A DNA stretch of 59,916 nt from a virus. The position numbers were made by a program, and so were the translations under genes. The stretch lies in the UHGV virus genome UHGV-0126570, one strand, 5' to 3'. Below the pieces are notes generated by a model. That model saw nothing but the letters and a program-made list of their open reading frames with translations. It was not told where the DNA came from and did not search any database. How positions within the stretch are numbered: position 1 is the first letter of the stretch; each line of letters begins with the position of its first letter. This document shows positions 10,314-57,335 of the stretch, in pieces.

Positions 10314-10726
10314 CCTGTGTGTCTACAAAACATCCCAATGATCGGAAAATGTTCGCTCGATGATTTGTATTAGAAAATTAATTTGCTGTTTCTAAATCGG
10401 AATGTATGATCTGCATCATCGACTGAAGTCATCCATTGCTGAAATTTTTAGTTGATCTTCCATGTTTTCAGGCTTATATTCATGCCGTCGTAGCAAATTC
10501 TGCGACCAGGTTTGACAGCCTGAATGTTAGTGCGGACAACCGCAGATTTCCGATATTGCGGTATTTTTGTGTCCGTAAACCGCGTTACGCCCGAATTATG
10601 GTGGGGCGTGATGGGGAGGCTTCGGCCTGCTGGTTTCACTAACGCCAGTCTGTCAACCCTGTCACGTCCTGCCACCTGTTTGACAGCGGGTAGCAGGTTG
10701 TTAAACCTGTTAGTGAGGCCGTAACT

Positions 10727-23801: not shown

Positions 23802-23878
23802 GATGGTGTAGCTCAGTAGGATAGAGCAGCAGCCTTCTAAGCTGTCGGTCGGTGGTTCGAATCCACCCACCATCGCCA
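23802..23878 (+). tRNA. tRNA-Arg (anticodon UCU; decodes rare AGA)
   Basis: Manual cloverleaf: acceptor GATGGTG/CACCATC, D-arm GCTC-AGTAGGATA-GAGC, anticodon stem GCAGC/GCTGT with loop CTTCTAA, T-arm GGTGG-TTCGAAT-CCACC, encoded CCA. Confidence 0.8.
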
Positions 23879-23880
23879 AT

Positions 23881-23956
23881 GCCGGTTTAGCTCAGTTGGT
23901 AGAGCGCCTGCCTTGTAAGCAGGATGTCAGCGGTTCGAGTCCGTTAACCGGCACCA
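23881..23956 (+). tRNA. tRNA-Thr (anticodon UGU)
   Basis: Acceptor GCCGGTT/AACCGGC, D-arm GCTC-AGTTGGTA-GAGC, anticodon stem CCTGC/GCAGG with loop CTTGTAA, T-loop TTCGAGT, encoded CCA. Confidence 0.8.
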
Positions 23957-23964
23957 ACACAACA

Positions 23965-24039
23965 GGTAAGGGTATTTTGCGACGTCGGAGATCGCCGTGC
24001 TTGGCAGAGGGTTCGAATCCCTACGAAGTACCCTTACCG
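23965..24039 (+). ncRNA. Non-canonical tRNA-like element (acceptor-like stem plus T-loop, no canonical D/anticodon arms)
   Basis: GGTAAGG(G)...GGGTTCGAATCCC...CCCTTACC: a 7-8 bp terminal helix and a perfect T-loop consensus, but the interior cannot be folded into a cloverleaf. Either a tRNA pseudogene or an RNase P-type processed regulatory RNA. Confidence 0.3.
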
Positions 24040-24421
24040 TTGTGATGAAGTGCAGCTCTTTGAAGCAACCAGAAGATAAGCATCTGGCTTCACAACATAA
24101 ACCGCAGGAACGACCAATAAACGGTAGTCCGTATGGAGAATACCCCGTTGAGGAAGAGGCCTGGCCGGAACCGTAACCGGCACTACAACGTTGAGAACAC
24201 TGACGTAACGGGGTCATATCCCAATCTACGAATAAATGTTGCGTTGCAGCGTGACAACCAGTGTTCTCAACGTTGTGGTGGATTCGCAGACTGATGCGAT
24301 AGCTTTCTTGGATGTTAGGGAAATGCGGCCGCAAACCTTCCCTTTCGCGAGCGGTGATCGTCCGTAGTCCTAATTGGCTGCACCGTATGCCGGAGATTCA
24401 GTACCGGCCACCACAACGGCC

Positions 24422-24508
24422 GGAGAGTAGGGAGCATGGTGCTCAAGCGGTCTTGAAAACCGTCCCATTGCGCAAGCGATGATGGTTCGATTCCATTACT
24501 CTCCGCCA
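24422..24508 (+). tRNA. Probable type II tRNA, tRNA-Ser (anticodon UGA)-like
   Basis: Acceptor GGAGAGT/ACTCTCC, anticodon arm GCGGT-CTTGAAA-ACCGT (close to E. coli serT), 17-nt variable region, T-arm GATGG-TTCGATT-CCATT, encoded CCA. D-arm and variable arm are atypical. Confidence 0.55.
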
Positions 24509-24775
24509 GCGCAACGTTAAGAGTATTTGGCTAATTAAGCGAATGCCGGAAGCAGAACCGGATCAACAAATGCGTACAGGCGTCATCGCCGCCCAGCCAG
24601 CCAAGTGCTCTTACCATTGCGGTGAATGCGGCTAAGCGCACGCGGAACAGTTAAAACAATCCTCCTTAGTGGTTAAGTCAAACATCCCGGCGTTAATTGT
24701 TAACTGGTTAACGTCACCTGGAGGCACCAGGCACCGCAACCTAATAAATACGTCATGTTTATTGAGGGATAACCA

Positions 24776-25210
24776 ATGTTCGGTAAATTTTTCGGTAAGA
24801 AAGTCGCTTCAGCAAAAGTAGAGCTGAAAAGGGTTGAGAATCGCGATCTGATGGAGGCCATTATCGGTGGCTGTTTGTTGGTGTCTGCCGCAGATGGTGA
24901 AATCGAAAAGGAAGAAACAGCGAAACTTGATCAGCTTGTCCGCTCTAATCCTCGCTTAAGTCATTTTGGCAACGAAATTACCGCAACAATCACCCGTTTT
25001 ACTGAGCAACTGGAAGCTGGTTTCCGTGTTGGTCGCATGAATATCCTTCGCGAAATTGAAGATATCAAAAATGATCCAAAAGAAGCGGAAGAAGTATTCG
25101 TTAACATGCTGACGATTGCAGAAGCGGACGGTGAAATCGAGCCAGCAGAACACAAAGTACTGGAAGAAGTAGGCCGTCGTTTGGGCCTTCGTGTGGAAGA
25201 TTATCTGTAA
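24776..25210 (+). CDS. TerB-like domain protein (tellurite-resistance TerB / TciA-like)
   Basis: 144 aa with the paired acidic helices typical of the TerB fold (...LLVSAADGEIEKEE...LTIAEADGEIEPAEHKVLEEV); GAGGG RBS. Adjacent to the tRNA-Ile2 gene, as tciA is adjacent to trnI in P1. Confidence 0.65.
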   Translation: MFGKFFGKKVASAKVELKRVENRDLMEAIIGGCLLVSAADGEIEKEETAKLDQLVRSNPRLSHFGNEITATITRFTEQLEAGFRVGRMNILREIEDIKNDPKEAEEVFVNMLTIAEADGEIEPAEHKVLEEVGRRLGLRVEDYL

Positions 25211-25374
25211 TGATTGGCAAGGCGCGTATTGCGTGCGCCATTGGTTTTCTCGTTTTGTCCGTGCTGGTGGATTTCACCAGCAAAGTGATGTCGGTGTTGG
25301 CTGATGGGGCACTGGTTTCAGTAGCTGTGGTATTGCTATTGCCGATTATTAAAGCTGCGTTCAGGAACTCATGA
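25210..25374 (+). CDS. Small membrane protein (54 aa), not in ORF track
   Basis: Start overlaps the upstream stop (TAATG); MIGKARIACAIGFLVLSVLVDF...VAVVLLLPII has two hydrophobic helices. Confidence 0.4.
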   Translation: MIGKARIACAIGFLVLSVLVDFTSKVMSVLADGALVSVAVVLLLPIIKAAFRNS

Positions 25375-25484
25375 TGGATTTTTGGACGTATATTGATAAG
25401 AACCCTGGATGGTCTTTGCTATTTCTTCTTGTGATCGTATACGGAGTAGAACAAGTAGCGAAGAATCTCAGGCGTCGAAAATAA
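25371..25484 (+). CDS. Small membrane protein (37 aa), not in ORF track
   Basis: ATGA overlap with the previous ORF; MMDFWTYIDKNPGWSLLFLLVIVYGV...RRRK has a single TM and basic tail. Confidence 0.35.
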   Translation: MMDFWTYIDKNPGWSLLFLLVIVYGVEQVAKNLRRRK

Positions 25485-25493
25485 AAACTAATT

Positions 25494-25569
25494 GGCCCCT
25501 TAGCTCAGTGGTTAGAGCTGGCGACTCATAATCGCACGGTCACCGGTTCAAGTCCGGTAGGGGCCACCA
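25494..25569 (+). tRNA. tRNA-Ile2 (anticodon CAU, lysidine-type; decodes rare AUA)
   Basis: GGCCCCTTAGCTCAGTGGTTAGAGC...CTCATAA...GGTTCAAGTCC...AGGGGCCACCA; acceptor and D-arm essentially identical to E. coli ileX. Cannot be formally distinguished from elongator Met by sequence alone. Confidence 0.75.
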
Positions 25570-30431: not shown

Positions 30432-31469
30432 TTACCAGAGTTTAGCGGCGTGCTGTGTTTGGGAGAAAGTGAACCCGTAACGTTCTTCTATGGTTTTACC
30501 GTATCTTTTCCGCGCGTCTGTCAGTTTTATGCCTGTCAGGTCATCTCCGGATGTCATCATTACGTCTAACAACTCCAGATCCATTTTATTCAGTCTCGCC
30601 ATCGCTTCGCGTGCTGTCTGTATTTTACGCTCAATGATATGGCGAATAGCCGGATCGGCTTCCTCAAGCATTTTGGCTGATTTGTTCTTTAAGCTCTCAT
30701 TGCGGATGTCGATGTTTCGCAAGATGTATGACTTCGCAACATAGCTTGGTTGGTGTTTCTCCAGATCGCGAACGCGATAGAGACTAAAGTCACCAAGCAG
30801 GCCGCAAGGTATCGACTCAACCCCAGAATAAATAGTAATGCTGCGACGTTCGCCGACATTATTAACAACGGGCACTGTGGTGTTCGGAAGTTTTGCGAAC
30901 ACTAAGGCTCCGTGTGCGCCTACCCTGAATCGTGACAGAGCATTGCTGCCTTCAATGTTTGTTGTAAGCACTACATCTGTGTATCCATCTTTGCGCGCCC
31001 GGTAAACTTCCCCTTCAGGTTCTGATGCGAAAAAACGGCGCTCTTCTTCAAGTGCACCAACAATCTGCGAAAATATCTTGTTTTTCAGGCTTTTCTTTAT
31101 AATTGCATCATATTTTTTGAGCAGATTTTCGCGCGTAAATGAGCGGGTGGTGGTCGCGCTTTGCACAACAATATGCGTGCTTTGATTTGTGTCCTCGATA
31201 ATGAATGGGATCGGAGAATATACAGACTCAACAATGTTAGACGCTTTGCCGTCAGCGTTACGGCACAAGTCAACAAAGGCTTTCCATTCTGTGAGGCACT
31301 TTTCAGCTTCTTCTAGCACATTCTGATCATGTGTTAGTGCAACATGGCGGAATTCCTCGCCGGAATAACTGGTATCATGGAAAACAGAGTTTGCGACCAC
31401 CAGCTCTTTCCACCGTTCAGCGGTTTGCAGGAACCGTTTGTACTCTTTCTCGATCGACTTCTTACTCAT
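30432..31469 (-). CDS. Hypothetical protein (345 aa); candidate immunity-region regulator
   Basis: Only gene between pacB and the lox-like site, divergent from cre; three operator-like motifs lie in its upstream region (31488-31497, 31572-31582, 31666-31674). Repressor role is positional inference only. Confidence 0.3.
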   Translation of the reverse strand: MSKKSIEKEYKRFLQTAERWKELVVANSVFHDTSYSGEEFRHVALTHDQNVLEEAEKCLTEWKAFVDLCRNADGKASNIVESVYSPIPFIIEDTNQSTHIVVQSATTTRSFTRENLLKKYDAIIKKSLKNKIFSQIVGALEEERRFFASEPEGEVYRARKDGYTDVVLTTNIEGSNALSRFRVGAHGALVFAKLPNTTVPVVNNVGERRSITIYSGVESIPCGLLGDFSLYRVRDLEKHQPSYVAKSYILRNIDIRNESLKNKSAKMLEEADPAIRHIIERKIQTAREAMARLNKMDLELLDVMMTSGDDLTGIKLTDARKRYGKTIEERYGFTFSQTQHAAKLW

Positions 31470-31487
31470 TATTCCTACTCGATTTAG

Positions 31488-31497
31488 TTTTCTAACA
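31488..31497 (-). promoter_or_regulatory. Operator-like half-site (TGTTAGAAAA on minus strand)
   Basis: About 20 bp upstream of the 31469 start codon of the minus-strand gene. Confidence 0.4.
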
Positions 31498-39465: not shown

Positions 39466-39870
39466 TTAATAAGAGAAATAGACCGTTGCAACACTGTTAT
39501 ATTGGTCGAACGAAATAGCATTTACTTCATAGCTGGTGGGCAGCTTCTTACCAAGAATGTAGCCAGGCCATGAGTTCCACGGAATTTCTGTTCGGTCGTC
39601 GTCTTGCCACATTACGCAACCCAGAGAGCCAACCATTTCACCATATCGCTTGCCACAAGTAACAAATCCGATATTCGGCTTTTCTTGTGTTACTGATACC
39701 GTGGTGGTATTGGCAGATGCATTGATTGCAGTACGTTGCTCATGCTCGCTGGCGGCTGAGGCGCTAATTACAGCGGTTGCCGCAGCTCCCGCAGCAATAA
39801 CCGATGCATGAGATAAATGACAGGCAGATAACATTGCCAGAAAAATAATATTTCTTTGAAATTTAGCCAT
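39466..39870 (-). CDS. Secreted protein (134 aa)
   Basis: Signal peptide MAKFQRNIIFLAMLSACHLSHA; Ala/Thr-rich linker. Confidence 0.45.
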   Translation of the reverse strand: MAKFQRNIIFLAMLSACHLSHASVIAAGAAATAVISASAASEHEQRTAINASANTTTVSVTQEKPNIGFVTCGKRYGEMVGSLGCVMWQDDDRTEIPWNSWPGYILGKKLPTSYEVNAISFDQYNSVATVYFSY

Positions 39871-40144
39871 TGATATTAACCTTTATCGCAAATACCTTAA
39901 CCGGATTCTCTCCAAAGTGCGGATGTGTGATTGTCTTGATTTCATATCCGTCATACGGGACGTCTATTCTGCGGCTGGAATCGTCGCGCTTCGGGTATCC
40001 CTTTGTGATAATCAGGCGGTCATATTCCCGGAACATAATTCGCTTATTCCAGTAGTCATTGCACAGGCGATACTCTTCCGTTTTCTCCCCGCGAATCATG
40101 GCATCGAAGTATTCACCTTTGACGGCAAGTTGCAGGTTAGCCAT
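39863..40144 (-). CDS. Hypothetical protein, possible ASCH/PUA-like fold
   Basis: MANLQLAVKGEYFDAMIRGEKTEEYR...ITHPHFG pattern; start chosen at the ATG overlapping the upstream stop. Fold assignment is tentative. Confidence 0.3.
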   Translation of the reverse strand: MANLQLAVKGEYFDAMIRGEKTEEYRLCNDYWNKRIMFREYDRLIITKGYPKRDDSSRRIDVPYDGYEIKTITHPHFGENPVKVFAIKVNING

Positions 40145-40404
40145 TACCGCACCTCCAGTCTCCATACCGCCTGACCAATCCGGCTGGCATAGGTATCTTT
40201 GGATACTGCTCCGTCTTTAGCCAGCTCCATAAGAATTTTGCGCAAATCTGCCGAACGCCATTCTTCATCAGGAAATTCCTTCTCCATTGCCAACCGCAGA
40301 TTCCAGGTTGCTATCGTGAATGGATATTCCCCGCCGAGAGCTTTCTCTTGCAGGGCAGAACGGGAACGCATCACCTGCAAAACCTTCTCTTTTACATCCA
40401 TCAT
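40144..40404 (-). CDS. Hypothetical protein (86 aa)
   Basis: ORF with ATGA coupling to neighbours. Confidence 0.35.
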   Translation of the reverse strand: MMDVKEKVLQVMRSRSALQEKALGGEYPFTIATWNLRLAMEKEFPDEEWRSADLRKILMELAKDGAVSKDTYASRIGQAVWRLEVR

Positions 40405-41057
40405 TTTGCCTCCTGCGGCGGTTCTGGTAGTGGCATCCAGTGTGTGACATTGCTAATCAGACCATATTCATTAGTTTGAGGATGGTTGCCGTTATCGTCT
40501 CCGTATTTAAGACTCTCCATAAAACCATAATGCTTATTCCCATTAACGCTCACAAAGCCGTAATAAGCTGGTATAACGCCGATCTCACACGTAATCAGCA
40601 AAGGAAAACTAGTTCTCCAATTTAGCTCGCCGATTACAGGCATTCTCTCACTACAGCTTATCCAACTATCCTGAGTTACCGGAGAGTTGCCCGATAGCTG
40701 GTTCAACTTGTAAGTTTGGCTTACAGGTTCGGCTTTCAGTTCTGCTATGCGCTTTTTTGCTGCTTCCAGCTCAACGCGCAGCTTCCCTACCGTTAGCGCA
40801 ATATCCTCGTTCTCCTGGTCGCGGAGTTTGATGTATTGCTGGTTTTTTTCCCGTTCATCCAGTAGTGCCAAAGCAACCTTTGGATTAAAGGCAGCAATAA
40901 ATTCAGCGTTGTTTTTCAGAACGTGTTGCGCAATGGCCTGACTACTTAGTCGGACCTCATAACCACGTGCGCCACGGTGTGGTTTATATGAGTCCCAGTC
41001 TCCCCACGTTGCTTTCTCTGCCGCCTCACGCAGTGCCTGGTAATTAATTTCGCTCAC
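40401..41057 (-). CDS. Ea22-like protein with C-terminal DUF551-like motif
   Basis: N-terminal MSEINYQALREAAEKAT (Ea22-type), coiled coil, C-terminal THWMPLPEPP. Confidence 0.5.
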   Translation of the reverse strand: MSEINYQALREAAEKATWGDWDSYKPHRGARGYEVRLSSQAIAQHVLKNNAEFIAAFNPKVALALLDEREKNQQYIKLRDQENEDIALTVGKLRVELEAAKKRIAELKAEPVSQTYKLNQLSGNSPVTQDSWISCSERMPVIGELNWRTSFPLLITCEIGVIPAYYGFVSVNGNKHYGFMESLKYGDDNGNHPQTNEYGLISNVTHWMPLPEPPQEAK

Positions 41058-41641
41058 TGGTTGCCTCCTTTGCGAAGCTGTTCAGCAATACTTACGCATA
41101 TCTCTGCGCCTCTAATCAGCCCCGGAACGTTCTTGTTTGGCCCAACTTCACCATCAACAAAATCAATCATCGCGTTACGAGCCATATCCACCCCCTGCGC
41201 ACGTACTTCAGCCAGGAGAGCGTCGGTAGCTGGGGTTTCCGTGAAGTTGTCCTCCCAACCGTAGTACTCCTGACGACAGAAGTTATTAAATTCCTTCTCC
41301 GACTGTTTAAGCGCCGCATTCTCCACTGCCAGCGCCGCGCACTTGGCCTCAAGAGCGGCAACCACTTCCTGATGGTCTTTGTACTTAACGTATGAGCCGG
41401 AGATGTCATCACCTTCGGTGTTTAGCCATGCGTCATTGCAATTCACTGCGTAGGTTCTGATGCTGATGCTCTCCCGCCCCTGACAGACGCCAGGCCAGTC
41501 AATAAAGTATCCGCAATGCCTACCTTCAGACGTGCGCGCAGGATAAATGCCGTTATGACCCGGCAAAATATATGCTACCCATTCATCTTGCGTTGCCTGT
41601 TCCGCCGCCTCGCGCAGTTCTTGATAGTTAATTTTGCTCAC
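41054..41641 (-). CDS. Ea22-like protein (paralog)
   Basis: N-terminal MSKINYQELREAAEQAT; C-terminal ...LLAEVRAQG...AEQLRKGGNQ shared with the 44216-44926 product. Confidence 0.5.
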   Translation of the reverse strand: MSKINYQELREAAEQATQDEWVAYILPGHNGIYPARTSEGRHCGYFIDWPGVCQGRESISIRTYAVNCNDAWLNTEGDDISGSYVKYKDHQEVVAALEAKCAALAVENAALKQSEKEFNNFCRQEYYGWEDNFTETPATDALLAEVRAQGVDMARNAMIDFVDGEVGPNKNVPGLIRGAEICVSIAEQLRKGGNQ

Positions 41642-41927
41642 TGGTTGCCTCCGCTTCCCACGTTTTCAGACTTTCACCACAGAATGGGCAAAATGAAACT
41701 CGAATAGGCGATTTAGAAAATTCACCAGACCGCAGCATGATCAGGTCCTGTGAATGAATTAATTCATGGTTATAGACTTTGTATTTCAGCAGGCCTTTTC
41801 GCGTCGTGTATTCAGCATCCTGCTCCAGAGATTGTGCCAGCGCCGCGCACGGTTCTATTTTTCTGCCATTAATCAAACAAGTGGAGATTCTGCACTTTGC
41901 AGCTCCGTCACCGTTACCTTGACTCAT
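41628..41927 (-). CDS. Small zinc-ribbon protein
   Basis: Cys pairs (CRISTC ... CPFCG). Confidence 0.35.
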   Translation of the reverse strand: MSQGNGDGAAKCRISTCLINGRKIEPCAALAQSLEQDAEYTTRKGLLKYKVYNHELIHSQDLIMLRSGEFSKSPIRVSFCPFCGESLKTWEAEATSEQN

Positions 41928-41940
41928 TGCGTTGTTCCCA

Positions 41941-42936
41941 TCAGTTATTAAACGTGATCACTCCGCGCTCGATGGCGAAGTCGAAAAGCTGGTTAGCGAC
42001 TACATAAAGGCGTATGCCATGTGCTTTTTCCCATGCCCGGACATCGTGTTCTGCGCTTCTGGCGCAGTCATCGCAAAGAGGAACAGCCCAGCGGTTGTGT
42101 TCGTTTAACGAGCGGGCGCGGTACATGAACGGGTGGTTAACTTTGCCACCGCATCCGATGCACGGACGAGAAACCACAAAGCGGAGATAAGCCGGGCTTT
42201 TTCCGAGTAAGGTTTTTGGACGGCGCATATATAGGAGGCCAGAATCCTCATCTACAGACAGGTTGACGATCTGCTCTGCGGTTATGTCCACCAGCTCGCG
42301 CGTACTGCGCTCCCAGGTGATATCTGATTCTTTCAGCGTACCGGTAGGGATTTCAGTTTTTGGCTGACAAAATGCAATGCGCCCGGCTTCATCTGGCAGC
42401 TCATCTTTCAGATTCCGGCGAATGGCCCAAAAAGTGAGTTCAACCATGCTCAGATCGCGTTCTGGCGGTAGTTTTAACTCGCTCGCAGCCCAGTTCATAA
42501 CCCAGTTGGCGCGATTCAGGGATAACTGGTCGTCCAGCTTGCTGTACCCCTTCATCATGTATTCCGCATCATGCTTCCAGCACAGGCGAACGGCAGAACC
42601 GTTATAGAAGTGAGTGGTTAGCTGGTGGCTACAATCGCGCTTATCATGCGCCTGGCAATCGTGAATGTTGGTGCTAACCCAGTGAACGATAGAATCCTCG
42701 CCACCTAACGCATTAAATACGCGCTCACTTTGAAAAAAGGGTGTCAGTGACTGGTTGGCAACCAGGGAATAATTCAGATCCACGACGCCATCAGGGGTGT
42801 TTTCAGCCTGTTCGCGCGGCAATGGGGAGATAAGAAAACGGCGGCCTGCGCCGATGTAATTGCTGGTGGGCTTATCTACAGGAAAGACAGCCACACCAGT
42901 TTCATTTACGACATATGGGGTGATTATTGCACTCAT
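41941..42936 (-). CDS. HNH-motif protein (331 aa)
   Basis: C-terminal CIGCGG...HPF...NEHN...PLCDDC resembles a His-Me finger; a palindromic operator-like site lies directly upstream. Confidence 0.4.
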   Translation of the reverse strand: MSAIITPYVVNETGVAVFPVDKPTSNYIGAGRRFLISPLPREQAENTPDGVVDLNYSLVANQSLTPFFQSERVFNALGGEDSIVHWVSTNIHDCQAHDKRDCSHQLTTHFYNGSAVRLCWKHDAEYMMKGYSKLDDQLSLNRANWVMNWAASELKLPPERDLSMVELTFWAIRRNLKDELPDEAGRIAFCQPKTEIPTGTLKESDITWERSTRELVDITAEQIVNLSVDEDSGLLYMRRPKTLLGKSPAYLRFVVSRPCIGCGGKVNHPFMYRARSLNEHNRWAVPLCDDCARSAEHDVRAWEKAHGIRLYVVANQLFDFAIERGVITFNN

Positions 42937-42978
42937 AATGCATACCGACTCTGTTTTGTTCCGAGCGGTAAAATAATA

Positions 42979-43008
42979 TGTTAGAAAATTAAAATCAACA
43001 ATCTAACA
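42979..43008. promoter_or_regulatory. Palindromic operator-like element TGTTAGA-N16-TCTAACA
   Basis: Between the minus-strand HNH gene start (42936) and the phosphatase gene end. Confidence 0.5.
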
Positions 43009-43040
43009 CGATTTTGAGCGCGTAAACGATGTAACCCGGC

Positions 43041-43724
43041 TTACGGTTGCCCTCCCTTCACCTGCATTAGCGTCAGGTTTCCGCAAAATACAGCACCAGT
43101 ATCGATATAATGCTGGTTCCAGAATGCTTTTGGGCTTTTAGCCGGGGTGTGTCCGAAGATAAATCGATCTGCACCTGTAATTTCTTCACCGATGCCATCT
43201 ATCGAATCACTAACACGGTCGCGCGACCAGATGACATTGAAAAGCGGCACAGCCTTACCGAACTGATACTCTCTATCCGGATAGTCAGCATGAGCAATGA
43301 CAATAGTCTCCTGCCCGGTGTTCAGCTCAATGATATGAGGCAATTGCCTTACCAGCTCCACCAGCGCCCTGGCTAAAACTTCCTTATCACTATCCAGCAT
43401 AAAGAACCACTGGCCGCCATTCATTAGCCAGTTATTCACGTTTCCAGCTGGGCTTAACGCATCGATCATCAACCTCTCATGGTTACCCATGACAGCCCGG
43501 AACCAGGGCATCTGCAATAACTCCAGGCATTCGACATTTTCAGTACCGCGATCGATAAGGTCGCCGACTGATATCAGTAAATCCTGCGCCGGGTCAAAAT
43601 CCACACGATGGAGTTCATTCATAAGCAGGGTGTAGCAACCGTGCAAATCACCAACAACCCATATGTTTCTGTATCCTGAACCATCAATACGGCTATATAA
43701 CGCCTGGTCGTTAACGGTGATCAT
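43041..43724 (-). CDS. Ser/Thr protein phosphatase (lambda-PP / calcineurin-like metallophosphatase)
   Basis: GDLHGC, GDLIDRG, GNHE and downstream His motifs in canonical order. Confidence 0.85.
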
Positions 43725-43948
43725 TCTGCAACATCCTCCAAATCAGCAACCGCGTCCATCACATCAGAACCGCGAATAACTTCAAAAGCGCGGCAGGCCA
43801 TTTGAAATACCTGTTGTTCTTGCGGGTGCGGAGACTCCCAATATTTGAAGCCTGGGCGATGCGTGTACCCCATCATGGAATAAAAATCGCCAGCAAGTTC
43901 AATCGCGGCATCAACAAGTTCGCGATTAGTCATTCGCTTTGCTGCCAT
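43721..43948 (-). CDS. Hypothetical small protein (75 aa)
   Basis: ORF with ATGA coupling. Confidence 0.35.
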
Positions 43949-44219
43949 TTGCTTTCTCCTGTCGGAACATCACGATCATCAGGTCACCTTTTGTCGCTAT
44001 CCTGGCTGTTGTGCCAGGCTCAATGCGGCTAAGTTCAAATGCGTCATAGAACGCCTCTAACGCTTTCTGGCGTCTCTCCTGTTTGCGGCGCTTTCCCCAC
44101 TGCTTTAGAAAAACAGAGGCCGCCCACTTCCCCGCACTGAACATGATGTAAAACCAACCGAGCAGGGCCAAACCTGTGTTGAGGGCCGTATCGAGCGTTA
44201 TCGTGGTGTCGATATTCAC
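43926..44219 (-). CDS. Small membrane protein
   Basis: Hydrophobic helix LALLGWFYIMFSAGKWAASVFL followed by a basic tail. Confidence 0.4.
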   Translation of the reverse strand: MNIDTTITLDTALNTGLALLGWFYIMFSAGKWAASVFLKQWGKRRKQERRQKALEAFYDAFELSRIEPGTTARIATKGDLMIVMFRQEKANGSKAND

Positions 44220-44926
44220 TGATTGCCCCCTTCCCTAAGCTGTTCTGCACAATGCAGCAGCGCACCTGTCGCATCTTTAAGCGTCACTAGCTCGTCATCA
44301 TCCAGTCCTACTCCCCTCGCGTCCCTGACAAACGCCGCGCAAAGGTCGTTAAACGCCCCCGCCCGCACTTCAGCCAGGAAAGCGCCAGTAGCAGGGGTGT
44401 CAATGCAAACACTGTCACGAAGGATGAAGAACGCATTAAGCATTCCTCTTTCTGGTACATCGTCCTGGCATTCCTCATATGCAACCAATGCATCCATCAT
44501 TTTCTGACCGAATTGCTGAGGGTGTGCAGATTTCAGTGCTATATTCTCCGCCGCCAGCGTCGCGCGATTGCTCTCCAGTTCTGCAATGCGCTGTTTTGCG
44601 GCATCAAGTTCAATCGACAATTTTTCCAACTGCTCTTTATGCTTTTTGTATGCCTGATATGCGTGCCAAGACTGTCCTTTGCGCACACTTTCAGTAATAT
44701 CAGAAATCTGTTCTGGTGTTAGCGTGGTCAGTGGCTGCGCTGGGGAAATCAGCACTTTCCCGGAATCCCAATCAAAACCAGCGTGAATTGACTGAACCTC
44801 AACTGAGGGTGTTGAACCAATGCTGCCAGGCGAATGAACAACGATCGTTACATCCATATCGCGACGATGGCTGTGGTTGTTGGACAAAATACGATTCACC
44901 AACTCAGAAAATTTGGAAAATTTCAT
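44216..44926 (-). CDS. Ea22-like mosaic protein (paralog)
   Basis: Start moved to the ATG at 44926 (ATGA overlap with the upstream stop). Coiled coil [14 protein letters not shown] and C-terminal ...FLAEVRAG...[10 protein letters not shown] shared with 41054-41641. Confidence 0.45.
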
Positions 44927-45285
44927 GCTGATTCCCTTTGCTCTTCCTGGATAATGTTGTTGCAATCTTTCACGCACTCGTTGCAGATGAAAACGTTGTC
45001 CCCGGCAATTAACTTTTTAACGGTGTGCTGGGATTTGTTGCAGAAGCTGCAATAAAGCGTTGAACTTGCTGATACGGATGGTGCGCCAGATGTCAGCCGC
45101 GCGATGTCGTTCTTGCGACGCAATATCACACGGCTGCACTCGACCAGCATCTCCGGGGATATCTTCTCCTCCGTAGCGAGCGTTTCTAATCGTTCGAGTA
45201 TGTGGAAGGCTTTTTCCTGGGTAATCCTGGGTAATTCAGCGTTACGCTCTGCCAGTTGTGCGGGCGTTAAACCTTCAGACTTCAT
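44923..45285 (-). CDS. Small protein with ClpX-type C4 zinc finger
   Basis: C-terminal [36 protein letters not shown] closely resembles the ClpX N-terminal zinc-binding domain. Confidence 0.55.
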
Positions 45286-45592
45286 ACACTCTCCTTTCGA
45301 AATAAACGTACTGATTAATCATGCCCAGGGGCATTTCGAGTTTTTCCGCGATCTCACGGCGGGGAACACCACACTGATGAAGCTGCCGTGCCAGTTCTAT
45401 ATCGCTCTGCCGGTATTTGGCTGACGGATGAAAGTCTCCTTTCAGAATCATGCTGATCCCCAGCTCCCGCGCTTTGGTCCTGACGGCATCACCGGTACGA
45501 CCGATCAGCTTCCCAATACTCTCTACCGTCATAGTTCCGGCGCACTGGCGGAGTATCATGATTTCTGCCCTTCCCCATCCCCGCCAGCTCAC
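45275..45592 (-). CDS. HTH protein (105 aa)
   Basis: Two helix-turn-helix-like stretches ([22 protein letters not shown]; [18 protein letters not shown]). Confidence 0.35.
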
Positions 45593-46239
45593 GCCGACAT
45601 CCTCTGAGACATAAACTCCACAAAACGAACTGCATCTTCAGAAACAACGCCGCATGACTTCAGATAATTCATTGCGTCATTAGGTAGCGGATTAGTTGGT
45701 TCGGCATTTGCCAGGGATTGAGATAAACGCGTGATTAATTTGACCATTCTCCGCTGCCGGAGGTTGTATCCTTCAGCTAAAGACAGGTAACTGGAAAGGG
45801 TATTGCTTAAGCGGGCGCGAAGCTGATCCGTGCCGTGACATTCAATAGCAACATCACGTAACGCATCGACCAGTTCACGGTAAAGATGCGCTGCCATTCT
45901 GCAATCTGTGTCAGATGGTGCTTCATAAATTACCGTCAACCCCAGTTTTTCAGCCAGAGCGTGTTCTGCACGTGCTCCTGCGGACACATCCCATCCCTTA
46001 AGCAGATAGATCGCATCAGCAGAACGCACCATTGCCAGGCAAATATCCATGTATTCACTCTGACAAAGGCCACCAGGTAACACAGCTGGATTCAGAACGA
46101 TATGCCCTTCAGCCATCAGCTCGCTCGCTTTCGCATTAAACGCCGCACGGTTGTAATCTGGATAACCAGTCATCGGCCCCGCGATGTAAATTTTCAAAAC
46201 ACGTTTCACCATCAAAATTTCCCCAAAATCGTGACGCAA
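45589..46239 (-). CDS. DUF4406-like (nucleoside 2-deoxyribosyltransferase-like) protein with C-terminal extension
   Basis: N-terminal KIYIAGPMTGYPDYNRAAF...LNPA...IYLLKGWDVSAGARAEHALAEKLGL matches the DUF4406 pattern; ~100-aa C-terminal extension. Confidence 0.45.
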   Translation of the reverse strand: MRHDFGEILMVKRVLKIYIAGPMTGYPDYNRAAFNAKASELMAEGHIVLNPAVLPGGLCQSEYMDICLAMVRSADAIYLLKGWDVSAGARAEHALAEKLGLTVIYEAPSDTDCRMAAHLYRELVDALRDVAIECHGTDQLRARLSNTLSSYLSLAEGYNLRQRRMVKLITRLSQSLANAEPTNPLPNDAMNYLKSCGVVSEDAVRFVEFMSQRMSA

Positions 46240-46406
46240 AACATAAGCACTGCGAAAAGCTCAATACCAAGCTCAAGTAGCGCCAACGCCCCGAAAAACA
46301 ACACATAGAACAGGCCAATTTCATTCACAGATGGCTGGTGGATCGCACTTAAAGCTATAAGCATCATGTCCTCCAAACAGTTATCAGGAATGATATTAAT
46401 GTTTTG

Positions 46407-46436
46407 TGTTAGAAAATCAATTTTGAATATCTAACA
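46407..46436. promoter_or_regulatory. Palindromic operator-like element TGTTAGA-N16-TCTAACA in a divergent promoter region
   Basis: Between the minus-strand operon start (46239) and the plus-strand Ref-like gene (46485). Confidence 0.5.
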
Positions 46437-46484
46437 ATTTTGATCAATCATAGAAAAATCGTTGAAAAGTAAGAGACTGCCATC

Positions 46485-47063
46485 ATGCAGAAACAGAGTT
46501 ATTGGGAGAAACAGAGACAAAAAGCCATGCAAAAATTGGCTGACCCAGCCTGGCGAGAGGAACAAAGGGCAAAGCGCCTTCAACAAGCTCAACGCCAGCA
46601 GCAGCGAGCGAGAGAAAAAGCCGCATCGCCTGAATATCGGCAAAAGAAAATTGAAAAAGCAAAGCAATATGAACAGCGGAGAAAAGATAAAGCGGTATCC
46701 GCTCCGCCCAAAAAAACACGCACGTCACGCGGCCTGAAGGGCAGATCACTCACAGCCGATGAACGCCGGATACAGACCGCTATCGGTACTCTCCCCTGCA
46801 TTGCCTGCCATATTCACGGGCAACATAGCCCAGTGGTATCCCTGCACCATATCTTCGGGAGAACGGCAGAGAACGCGCATAAATATGTCCTCCCTTTGTG
46901 TAAATGGCACCACCAGTACGCAGCGCCAGCCGAGGTCCGAGAACAATATCCCTGGCTGGTCCCTGTTCATGCTGATGGAAAAATAGGCGGAAAAGCAGAT
47001 TTCATGCGGCACAATGCCGATGAAATGACGTTGTATCAGATGGCGATTGAATTGATAAATTAG
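46485..47063 (+). CDS. Ref-like HNH endonuclease (basic disordered N-terminus plus His-Me finger core)
   Basis: N-terminal ~90 aa highly basic (QKQRQKAMQK...RRKDK); C-terminal LPCIACH..HGQH..SLHHIFGR..H..LPLCKWHH. Architecture matches P1 Ref; the identity is an inference. Confidence 0.4.
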   Translation: MQKQSYWEKQRQKAMQKLADPAWREEQRAKRLQQAQRQQQRAREKAASPEYRQKKIEKAKQYEQRRKDKAVSAPPKKTRTSRGLKGRSLTADERRIQTAIGTLPCIACHIHGQHSPVVSLHHIFGRTAENAHKYVLPLCKWHHQYAAPAEVREQYPWLVPVHADGKIGGKADFMRHNADEMTLYQMAIELIN

Positions 47064-47394
47064 TTTTCTAACATTTTAAGTTGAATTGTAAATTTCTCCG
47101 ATGTACATTCACTACCGATTGGCACACCGGTCAACTTTTTGAGACAAACTGTTTAGTTTTTCGTATTATTGCCGCCGCTATACCTATGGCGGTGCAATAT
47201 AGGTGGCTGAAAAGCCCCCGTTGACTCACGGTGTTCCAGCCTTTATTGCGCCGCCACCAGACCGTGGAACAGTCGATGGCGGCTCCGAAAGCAAGGAGTC
47301 ACTACACTATGAACAGCTACTGTCTTTTCCCATCACTCGTTGTCCGCCACTCACGCGATAATCTGCATTCTTTACTCGCGCTGGGGGTGTCAAA

Positions 47395-47562
47395 ATGACC
47401 GTTCGCTACCTCAACTTTCAAATCCAGAACATCACTGGCGGTTGCTATGACTGGTTTGTCACTCTCGGAAAAGAAGTGATCACCGGGAAGCTGGATGAAG
47501 TGAAAGCTAAAGCAATGGCCTACGCCTGCAAGCAAGCCCGGAAGAAATCCGCCAAAGCATAA
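47395..47562 (+). CDS. Possible small ORF (55 aa)
   Basis: ATG preceded by GGGGG; competes with an antisense 72-codon ORF (47317-47535). Coding status uncertain. Confidence 0.2.
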   Translation: MTVRYLNFQIQNITGGCYDWFVTLGKEVITGKLDEVKAKAMAYACKQARKKSAKA

Positions 47563-47667
47563 AATACTGACTGTTGCGCCATGGCATTATCGTGGGGTAT
47601 ATTTCTACGGCACCTTAGAAAAACGGGTGCCGGGATTGGAACCCCGGATAATGTCAAAGGCGACACA

Positions 47668-47689
47668 GACGCCGAAAGCGTCTTTTTTT
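47668..47689 (+). terminator. Rho-independent terminator
   Basis: GACGC-cgaaa-GCGTC followed by TTTTTTT. Confidence 0.7.
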
Positions 47690-47874
47690 GTGTCATGCCA
47701 TCGCACAGCCATACGTAGCGTTTAGCTCAGAGATCAATGGTAGTGCTGGCTGGGCTGCCGAAAGGCAGGCCGGTTCCCTTTGACGCCGGTAGTTCCAACC
47801 CAGTCAGTGCTACCGCCATTGAGATTGGAACCTCACGCGGTAGCTCCTTAACTTAGTCAAAGGAGGCTGCCAAT

Positions 47875-57276: not shown

Positions 57277-57285
57277 AAAACACAT

Positions 57286-57329
57286 CCAATTGTGTTAGAT
57301 AATTGAATAGAATTTTCTAACACAATTGG
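57286..57329. promoter_or_regulatory. Extended palindromic operator-like element CCAATTGTGTTAGA-N16-TCTAACACAATTGG
   Basis: Near-perfect 14-bp inverted arms, 7 bp upstream of the rdgC start codon. Confidence 0.55.
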
Positions 57330-57335
57330 TGAAAC

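Follow-up and report, generated by a model that had tools for sequence, protein, structure and literature searches.

Positions 41,941 to 47,063 of a viral genome of 59,916 nucleotides (UHGV-0126570, the whole of which is called the window below) hold two genes for proteins of the His-Me finger (HNH) type, a gene of the DUF4406 family and palindromes. What might these genes do, and what governs them? A sequence-only reading had taken the palindromes for operator-like elements and the proteins for possible recombination or nucleotide-modifying functions. We think it quite probable that the region is an accessory early block of a D6-like phage-plasmid, under the control of its own C1-type repressor, with a Ref nuclease, a PdcB-like His-Me finger protein and a DUF4406 enzyme that act as proposed in what follows.

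The element and its early genes

By its sequence, the window belongs to the D6-like phage-plasmids of E. coli, which are related to P1, and the region is a piece of the accessory early-gene block of such an element. The segment shares 99.8% DNA identity with the E. coli plasmid pEC7-3 and 92.6% with Escherichia phage D6 (NC_050154), and at least 80% of the region is covered in 94 plasmids. Gene order and operators are the same as in orf87-orf98 of D6 and in D6-like plasmids such as pEC7-3, whose annotation, like that of D6, already carries the names Ref, DUF4406 and HNH/DUF968. The sole difference from D6 in gene content lies in the mosaic Ea22-like and small genes between the DUF4406 gene and ppp. 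The genes are as follows.

41941-42936, minus strand: PdcB-like protein, 331 aa, with a C-terminal DUF968 His-Me finger and an N-terminal/middle domain not assigned to a family
43041-43724, minus strand: Ppp-like Ser/Thr metallophosphatase (Pfam Metallophos, E 9e-15; about 85% DNA identity to P1 ppp)
43721-43948, minus strand: hypothetical protein, 75 aa (PHROG 4132, E 2.8e-41)
43926-44219, minus strand: DUF4752 protein (Pfam, E 9.7e-41)
44216-44926, minus strand: Ead/Ea22-like mosaic protein, 236 aa from the ATG at 44926 (PHROG 6026 and 368; PGAP boundaries)
44923-45285, minus strand: protein of 120 aa that ends in a C4 zinc finger of the ClpX type (Pfam zf-C4_ClpX, E 1.3e-17)
45275-45592, minus strand: DNA-binding protein, 105 aa, resembling a segment of a D5-like regulator (PHROG 323, E 6.7e-28; PGAP "DNA-binding protein")
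45589-46212, minus strand: DUF4406 protein, 207 aa, with a predicted NDT-like domain (residues 1-100) and a helical extension (about 100-207)
46212-46367, minus strand: small hydrophobic membrane ORF, 50-51 aa, homologue of D6 orf88 (PHROG 8890, E 3e-35; GRAVY 1.64)
46485-47063, plus strand: Ref-like HNH nuclease, putatively RecA-dependent, 192 aa, with a basic N-terminal arm (about 1-90) and a C-terminal nuclease core (Pfam, PDB and PHROG matches)

The DUF4406 gene had been described as lying divergent from ref. It does belong to the divergent operon, but as its second gene: the first is the membrane ORF, which is annotated in both D6 and CP104667, lies between the DUF4406 gene and the intergenic region, and ends in a stop codon that overlaps the DUF4406 ATG (TGATG). 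That ATG, at 46212, is most likely the true start, rather than a TTG that would give 216 aa; the 207-aa form is 100% identical to a database protein (P0001).

Predicted operators and a C1-type repressor

The palindrome TGTTAGA-N16-TCTAACA occurs three times in the window (42979-43008, 46407-46436 and 57293-57322) against 0.00 expected, so that the operator-like elements noted earlier upstream of both His-Me finger genes are not random. Each consists of two overlapping, inverted copies of a 17-bp asymmetric site, TGTTAGAAAAYTAAWTT, which is found 13 times in the window where 0.83 are expected, about a 15-fold excess over dinucleotide shuffles. The sites of the region, and the protein presumed to bind them, are these.

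42979-43008, no strand assigned: predicted bivalent operator between ppp and the DUF968 gene (PWM 24.5 and 13.9)
46407-46436, no strand assigned: predicted bivalent operator in the 108-bp intergenic region between ref and orf88, with a strong half-site at 46407-46423 (plus) and a weaker one at 46420-46436 (minus) (PWM 25.3 and 16.6)
47057-47073, minus strand: predicted monovalent operator across the ref stop codon, matching the consensus perfectly (PWM 27.5)
30432-31469, minus strand: homologue of C1-type prophage repressors, 345 aa (BLASTP to P1 C1.100, 20% identity, E 6e-8)

The block at 46407-46436 is invariant in the divergent plasmid CP104667 despite differing flanks, and the site at 42979-43008 recurs in D6, pEC7-3 and CP104667; the weaker half-sites vary among relatives. 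Candidate divergent promoters lie over the former block (rightward TTGAAT-N17-AATCAT, leftward TTGATT-N16-TAATAT; both found by eye, each matching 8 of 12 consensus positions), and another candidate, TTGTTG-N17-TATTAT, lies inside 42979-43008 on the minus strand. A promoter scan did not pick up the candidates within the operators, whose match to the sigma-70 consensus is 8/12.

Most likely, the 17-bp site serves the element's distant homologue of C1 as its operator, because the positions of the sites in D6 are those of promoters that carry C1 operators in P1 (c1, lpa, repL, immI and ref). In D6, where orf1 is annotated as similar to P1 C1, the motif is found upstream of c1, lpa, pmgR, repL, icd/ant, hrdC-dmt, cre, ref and the pdcB-like gene, and also at the ref stop codon. 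The same arrangement is seen in the C1 operators annotated in P1 (Oc1, Olpa, OpmgR, Oref and Omat): Oref lies where 46407-46436 lies here, and Omat likewise overlaps the end of ref. In the window, a further site (31481-31497) lies just upstream of the gene encoding the C1 homologue. The P1 regulon also consists of many dispersed 17-bp asymmetric sites, some monovalent and some overlapping and bivalent, at the same set of promoters. However, the operator sequence differs (TGTTAGAAAAYTAAWTT here, ATTGCTCTAATTGATTG at P1 Oref) and the repressor shares only 20% of its residues with P1 C1, so we infer binding from position only; divergence of this kind would point to an immunity specificity distinct from that of P1.

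In the plasmid prophage, the 345-aa repressor would bind the 17-bp operators. The bivalent operator in the 108-bp region would shut off both divergent promoters, that of ref and that of the leftward operon (small membrane ORF, DUF4406, DNA-binding, ClpX-zinc-finger, Ea22-like, DUF4752 and Ppp), and the second would act directly upstream of the PdcB-like DUF968 gene. The monovalent site at the end of ref probably governs the immI-type operon that follows, the C4-icd-ant immunity module (isrK-like RNA, C4 RNA, icd and ant); a promoter is predicted at 47141-47169, and C4 RNA and isrK lie at 47610-47820. Upon inactivation of the repressor, all operator-controlled genes would be expressed early in lytic growth.

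The three accessory proteins

The 192-aa protein had been likened to the P1 nuclease Ref, and it matches RecA_dep_nuc (PF16786; E 7.4e-35, 119.6 bits, Pfam cut-off 26.9), the P1 Ref structure 3PLW in the PDB (E 7e-51) and PHROG 2321 (E 1.6e-82). It is 54% identical to P1 Ref overall and 66% in the core. The ORF and its His/Cys motifs (LPCIACH 103-109, SLHH 119-122 and LPLCKWHH 136-143) had been reported exactly, and the N-terminus is as strongly basic as was claimed, with 28 Lys or Arg in residues 1-90 and a pI of 11.1. The two proteins share a two-part architecture, basic N-terminal arm and HNH core, and the CxxC, HH and CxWHH motifs are kept: C105, C108, H121, H122, C139, H142, H143 and H162 are invariant in the alignment, the last two of the histidines corresponding to the active-site H134 and H153 of P1 Ref (residue roles from PMC4713147). 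The arm is about 14 residues longer than that of P1 Ref and poorly conserved. In both elements, ref, which in P1 is a C1-repressed lytic function (PMC4713147), is preceded by one operator and has a second across its stop codon, but here the upstream operator is bivalent and unlike that of P1 in sequence, the C4-icd-ant module takes the place of mat downstream, and the divergent DUF4406 operon takes the place of cre-c8 upstream. The protein presumably acts as P1 Ref does, RecA dependence included: the basic arm, expected to be unstructured, would bind DNA, and the zinc-containing HNH core would cut it solely where RecA filaments are bound, amplifying damage and lysis in a host under SOS.

The 331-aa protein was also read correctly, in its coordinates, in its motifs (CIGCGG 259-264, NEHN 278-281 and PLCDDC 286-291) and in its assignment to the His-Me type. 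It matches DUF968 (PF06147) over profile positions 1-171 of 171 (E 9.1e-44, 149.9 bits, Pfam cut-off 27.8) and PHROG 96 (E 2e-102), and it shares 39% identity over its whole length with P1 PdcB, which is of similar length (347 aa). DUF968 is classed among the His-Me finger families, in group 7 with YbcO (PDB 3G27) (PMC5714182). C259, C262, H280, C288, C291 and D298, among them the Cys pairs of the zinc knuckle and the putative catalytic His of the beta-beta-alpha-Me motif, show no variation across 15 homologues and P1 PdcB, and the pattern of four Cys, His and Asp is common to P1 PdcB and YdfU of the E. coli Qin prophage (PF06147). The gene lies after ppp under a predicted operator of its own; in P1, pdcB comes after phd-doc-pdcA and before Olpa/lpa. 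The structure model, of moderate quality, has a mean pLDDT of 64.7 and values under 50 for residues 277-280, in the neighbourhood of the putative catalytic His, and a Foldseek search with it gave no match. The protein is probably a His-Me finger nuclease stabilised by zinc, its fold being nearest to that of Ref; it probably works on DNA in early recombination or replication and would be dispensable, like pdcB of P1.

The DUF4406 assignment proved sound as well (PF14359; E 7.6e-34 to 8.4e-34, 116.3 bits, Pfam cut-off 22; PHROG 5781, E 2e-95), so that the profile matches for all three families lie far above the Pfam cut-offs, and the earlier interpretation as a whole is supported. The protein (207 aa here, 203 aa in D6) is 77-78% identical to its D6 counterpart. 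In an alignment of 37 sequences, G12, P13, N21, F25, G36, P42, L71, S77, G79, E83 and A87 are invariant, and Y9 is at least 90% conserved. Residues 1-100, with pLDDT above 90 in the AF2 model, are predicted to adopt a nucleoside 2-deoxyribosyltransferase (NDT)-like fold: the best PDB matches in Foldseek are the NDTs 2A0K, 6QAI and 8PQT, followed by MilB, BcmB and DNPH1 (probability 1.0, TM 0.5, with weak E-values from 3.9e-4). Along with the Rossmann-like fold of these enzymes, the model has an N-terminal Tyr-x-x-G-P and a conserved Glu at the position expected of the nucleophile, the residue-level equivalence being putative. Identity to NDTs is 17-23%, however, the domain is about 50 residues shorter, Ser-x-Gly-A-x-x-Glu replaces the Asp-rich motif, and the helical C-terminal extension is unique to the DUF4406 protein in this comparison. 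That extension, also noted earlier, comprises two short helical modules common to Ea22/DUF551-type mosaic proteins, which probably serve in assembly or partner binding. The protein would be a minimal enzyme of the NDT fold in which Glu83, together with Tyr9, most likely either cleaves off or transfers the base of a nucleotide or (deoxy)nucleoside.

Alternative readings and significance

Might the sites TGTTAGA...TCTAACA belong to some other factor, such as a late-promoter activator or the host's H-NS or IHF, or be plain promoter or terminator sequence? They are AT-rich, P1 ref is bound by H-NS as well (PMC4713147), and the identity of the repressor to P1 C1 is low. Nonetheless we regard this as very improbable: the 17-mer has a specific core containing GC and is in excess over shuffled sequence, late promoters in P1 are a different, separately annotated element, and the D6 sites coincide gene for gene with P1 C1 operators, autoregulatory c1 sites among them, and the mono- and bivalent forms fit the operator architecture of P1. 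It is likewise improbable that the Ref-like protein works as a general HNH nuclease with no need of RecA, or that its main role is that of a DNA-binding toxin or an inhibitor of cell division. The different sequence and greater length of its arm would suit such a role, and in P1 the arm by itself triggers SOS and Ref stops division whether or not RecA is involved (PMC4713147), but all metal and active-site residues of the core are kept, and the interaction with RecA appears robust because P1 Ref works with RecA proteins of distant bacteria (PMC4713147).

For the PdcB-like protein, a catalytically dead His-Me finger in a zinc-finger DNA-binding or regulatory protein is somewhat unlikely. In its favour, the literature holds no DUF968 protein with demonstrated activity, P1 pdcB is without an assigned function, one DUF968 member is annotated as a transcriptional regulator (PMC5714182), the model is poor near His280, and profile searches of the PDB gave no match. 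A bolder notion, to which we give little credence, is that the protein is a second Ref-fold, cofactor-dependent targeted nuclease, forming with Ref a pair of filament- or partner-guided nucleases; beside a DUF4406 N-glycosidase that carries Ea22-type modules, the pair would make up an early set for host takeover or counter-defence. As for the DUF4406 protein, it is unlikely to be instead a module that binds or sequesters nucleotides, or a hydrolase of a signalling nucleotide (NAD-derived or cyclic) active in counter-defence. Such a role would fit an early gene of an accessory block, a domain of about 100 aa that is one third smaller than NDTs, and a fold common to DNPH1, the MilB/BcmB N-glycosidases and TIR-like proteins. 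However, no PADLOC defence model was matched, a literature search found nothing on DUF4406 function, and the invariant Glu and near-invariant Tyr suit NDT and N-glycosidase chemistry equally well.

The three accessory genes, all with predicted repressor operators in front, are what they had been taken for, but they are ordinary, and the result matters little beyond that confirmation: the PdcB/DUF968 and DUF4406 proteins are not distinct from hundreds of annotated copies. The families of both would nevertheless repay biochemical work, and with the operator consensus the early genes under repressor control in D6-type elements can be listed easily. Ref is known as a tool-like nuclease, capable of RecA-guided cutting, and as a cause of phage-antibiotic synergy. 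Its orthologue, present on D6-like plasmids that are widespread in E. coli and Salmonella, may affect fluoroquinolone killing as Ref does.

Also, in the model of the PdcB-like protein, the C-terminal His-Me finger appears structurally closest to Ref, and the confidently predicted middle domain contains a further Ref-like hairpin-helix, C..LCWxHD. The gene and ref lie under the same presumed repressor.

The element and its three focal genes

The segment from 41500 to 47500 is 92.6% identical to Escherichia phage D6, a plasmid prophage related to P1, over 85% of the segment's length, and the interval 41900-47100 is 99.8% identical to plasmid pEC7-3 of E. coli EC-07. At least 80% of the segment is covered by 94 records of a plasmid collection; most of these replicons are non-mobilizable, about 90 kb in size, and come from E. 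coli and Salmonella. The genes considered here, with the small reading frame that accompanies one of them, are:

41941-42936, minus strand: PdcB-like protein of 331 aa (Pfam DUF968, phrog_96, alignment with P1 PdcB)
45589-46212, minus strand: DUF4406 protein of 207 aa, with ATG at 46212 (Pfam DUF4406, phrog_5781)
46212-46367, minus strand: small hydrophobic ORF of 50-51 aa (PHROG 8890, E 3e-35; GRAVY 1.64)
46485-47063, plus strand: Ref-like protein of 192 aa (Pfam RecA_dep_nuc, PHROG, 3PLW)

A sequence-only reading had proposed two His-Me (HNH) proteins and a divergent DUF4406-like gene, with operator-like palindromes upstream of the former. Both His-Me reading frames exist exactly as it placed them and contain the Cys/His motifs it quoted. 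The Pfam scores for RecA_dep_nuc, DUF968, and DUF4406 all lie far above the curated cut-offs, the PHROG assignments agree, and the catalytic residues are present. A DUF4406-type frame (45589-46239) does diverge from the 192-aa gene, but it is not the adjacent gene: it comes second in the divergent operon. The observation is thus confirmed and its interpretation supported, once the gene boundaries and the order of the operon are slightly corrected.

The finding re-derives existing annotation, since the genes and their names are already public in the records of D6 and hundreds of related plasmids. The D6 RefSeq record has "Ref-like RecA filament endonuclease (similar to P1 ref)" and "HNH endonuclease (similar to P1 pdcB)", and the PGAP annotation of pEC7-3 has "Ref family recombination enhancement nuclease", "DUF4406 domain-containing protein", and "DUF968 domain-containing protein". 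The mechanism of Ref is established for P1. None of the three focal proteins matched an NCBIfam model, and no gene matched a defence-system model in PADLOC.

The two His-Me finger proteins

The Ref-like protein matches Pfam RecA_dep_nuc (E 7.4e-35, 119.6 bits against a cut-off of 26.9), the PHROG for Ref-like RecA filament endonucleases (E 1.6e-82), and the sequence of the P1 Ref crystal structure, 3PLW (E 7e-51). Its identity to P1 Ref is 54% overall and 66% (74/112) within the nuclease core. Nuclease-dead P1 Ref, H134A/H153A, lacks two Zn-coordinating active-site histidines (Ronayne et al., PMC4713147); both are conserved here as His143 and His162, as are Cys105, Cys108, His121, His122, Cys139, and His142. 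Residues 1-90 include 28 Lys/Arg and have a pI of 11.1, much like the charged DNA-binding arm at the N-terminus of P1 Ref (PMC4713147), so that the architecture attributed to the protein, a basic arm joined to a Ref-type core, holds. In P1, ref is a nonessential lytic function under C1 repression, and its product cleaves RecA-bound DNA and boosts killing by ciprofloxacin (PMC4713147). By analogy, the protein encoded here would bind DNA through its basic arm and cut at RecA filaments, RecA dependence being presumed for this orthologue.

The PdcB-like protein matches Pfam DUF968 over residues 161-325 (E 9.1e-44, 149.9 bits against a cut-off of 27.8) and the HNH endonuclease family phrog_96 over residues 1-328 (E 2e-102). 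Its alignment with P1 PdcB spans the full length, at 39% identity. PGAP starts the gene 14 codons downstream in near-identical plasmids, giving a 317-aa product without the residues encoded by 42894-42936 (minus strand). The longer start is more likely, because conservation of the first 14 residues reaches to P1 PdcB and the PHROG covers them. Cys259, Cys262, His280, Cys288, Cys291, and Asp298 are invariant in 15 homologues at 47-96% identity and in P1 PdcB, a pattern predicted to form a His-Me finger enclosed by a Cys4 zinc knuckle. DUF968 has been grouped with DUF1364/YbcO (3G27) in His-Me finger group 7 (Jablonska et al., PMC5714182), and its C-terminal HNH motif has been described by Curtis et al. 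(PMC4118853). The protein would most likely be a zinc-stabilised His-Me nuclease acting on DNA. P1 pdcB itself is dispensable and has no known function.

How closely the two His-Me cores are related depends on the level of comparison. The relationship claimed for them probably stands at the level of the fold but does not extend to sequence: BLASTP gave no significant match (E 0.099), and hhalign assigned a probability of 3% to an alignment of PdcB-like residues 242-300 with Ref residues 83-152. The AlphaFold model of the PdcB-like protein has moderate quality: pLDDT averages 64.7, reaches about 80-90 over residues 60-180 and over most of 250-330, and falls below 50 at 277-280. Foldseek returned no match to it. 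The N-terminal 170 residues belong to no Pfam family, and PHROG 11007 covers residues 3-129 as a separate family. The best-modelled part, residues ~60-180 (42397-42759, minus strand; pLDDT 85-93), comprises a beta-hairpin and helix (106-129) with invariant Cys94 and Cys119-Trp-x-His122-Asp123. The latter resembles the LCKWHH of Ref, and the hairpin and helix may represent a further His-Me finger in degenerate form.

The DUF4406 protein and its mosaic surroundings

The DUF4406 protein matches its Pfam family with an E value of 8.4e-34 (116.3 bits, cut-off 22) and, at full length, phrog_5781 with 2e-95. A TTG start giving 216 aa was rejected in favour of the ATG at 46212, whose 207-aa product is 100% identical to a database protein; the ATG also fits the gene model of D6 and the PHROG coverage, which spans residues 10-211 of the long form. 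The stop codon of the hydrophobic 50-51-aa ORF overlaps this ATG (TGATG), and the DUF4406 gene is therefore the second of the divergent operon. Annotations of D6 and of a more divergent plasmid, CP104667, include this ORF as well.

The model is confident for residues 1-100 (pLDDT >90), and its top matches in the PDB are the nucleoside 2-deoxyribosyltransferases 2A0K, 6QAI, and 8PQT (E from 3.9e-4, probability 1.0), followed by the CMP N-glycosidases MilB/BcmB and then by DNPH1. The earlier label "nucleoside-transferase-like" is borne out by these matches. Sequence search found no relative with a solved structure, and a literature search on DUF4406 function found nothing. Among 37 diverse homologues, Gly12, Pro13, Asn21, Phe25, Gly36, Pro42, Leu71, Ser77, Gly79, Glu83, and Ala87 are invariant and Tyr9 nearly so. 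The obvious candidate for the nucleophile is Glu83, with Tyr9 as its partner, the two being presumed equivalents of the transferases' catalytic pair. The protein would most likely act through Glu83 as an N-glycosidase or transferase on a nucleoside or nucleotide.

The C-terminal extension, residues ~100-207 (45592-45915, minus strand), is predicted to be helical at low confidence. It has no Pfam family, and an exhaustive search of 1.84 billion representatives found just 20 relatives, all weak, at E <=0.001. It is built of two short helical modules. The first, which takes up the initial ~45 residues of the extension (PHxYRELVNxLRDxAxxYxGxxQLR), recurs, at times twice, in small mosaic lambdoid proteins, some of which end in DUF551, and the second is shared with two other small proteins. 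Since the modules recur in this way while full-length relatives are confined to D6-like elements, the extension looks like the product of shuffling of Ea22/Ead-type modules. Several Ead/Ea22-like genes lie in the same operon.

A 120-aa protein (44923-45285, minus strand) joins an uncharacterised N-terminal part to a C4 zinc finger of the ClpX type (Pfam E 1.3e-17) but lacks the AAA+ body. D6-like plasmids conserve this protein, PGAP names it "ClpX C4-type zinc finger protein", and it might act as a mimic or competitor of the ClpX N-domain. A further mosaic block (39863-41641, minus strand), downstream of the PdcB-like gene, encodes two Ead/Ea22-like proteins with near-identical N-termini (MSxINYQxLREAAExAT...), one with a DUF551-like THWMPLPEPP tail, an illustration of module shuffling.

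Probable operators and their repressor

The palindromes reported upstream of both His-Me genes are real. The pattern TGTTAGA-N16-TCTAACA occurs three times (42979-43008, 46407-46436, and 57293-57322) against 0.00 expected. Each palindrome pairs two copies, inverted and overlapping, of a longer site that is itself asymmetric, TGTTAGAAAAYTAAWTT. When up to 3 mismatches are allowed, 13 copies of this site are found where 0.83 would be expected; a weight-matrix scan gives 16 sites, including the weaker second halves of pairs. The third palindrome sits within a longer inverted repeat (CCAATTGTGTTAGA...TCTAACACAATTGG, in the interval 57285-57330) between gene-5-like and hrdC-like genes, as in D6, where it is conserved. 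In CP104667, the ref intergenic region has diverged in its flanks but is invariant in its operator block, and both bivalent palindromes are exact. Two further features bear on control:

30432-31469, minus strand: C1-type repressor homologue of 345 aa (20% identity to P1 C1, E 6e-8)
47057-47073, minus strand: perfect-match monovalent site overlapping the ref stop codon

In D6, copies of the motif precede c1, lpa, pmgR/pmgS, repL, icd-ant, hrdC-dmt, and cre as well as ref and the pdcB-like gene, and the motif is also present at the ref stop codon. The curated P1 record describes monovalent and bivalent C1 operators, among them Oc1, Olpa, OpmgR, Oref, which precedes ref, and Omat, which overlaps the stop codon of ref. 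Because position and architecture match those of P1, the sites are very likely operators of the element's own C1 homologue. A copy at 31481-31497, directly upstream of the homologue's gene, suggests autoregulation as at P1 Oc1, and the low identity to P1 C1 fits a different operator sequence. The D6-type operator set is a straightforward variant of the P1 C1 regulon.

Candidate sigma-70 promoters that overlap the operators were found by eye (rightward TTGAAT-N17-AATCAT, leftward TTGATT-N16-TAATAT, and TTGTTG-N17-TATTAT for the DUF968 gene), each matching only 8/12 consensus positions. A consensus promoter scan reported none of the three, nor any promoter at either bivalent operator, and the positions are putative. 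In the plasmid prophage, the C1-type repressor would sit on the operators and silence three units: ref, the PdcB-like gene, and a leftward accessory operon (the membrane ORF, DUF4406, a DNA-binding protein, the ClpX-zinc-finger protein, Ea22-like, DUF4752, and Ppp). After induction, the three would act as early genes.

Downstream of ref, Rfam identifies an isrK-like RNA and a C4 antisense RNA (47610-47820, plus strand) ahead of icd and a Rha-type antirepressor, which makes an immI-type module the probable target of the operator at the ref stop codon. Two C4 genes are present in all (47733-47820, 77.1 bits; 10594-10679, 68.8 bits). Upstream of the first lies the isrK-like RNA and upstream of the second a c4-a1b1 target, the latter two together at 10474-10679 (plus strand). 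As an icd/antirepressor pair follows each C4 gene, the element has two immunity modules of the immI type, like D6. Elsewhere, a cluster of four tRNA genes (23802-25569, plus strand; Arg-TCT, Thr-TGT, Ser-TGA, Met-CAT) differs somewhat from the Ser/Thr/Asn set annotated in D6.
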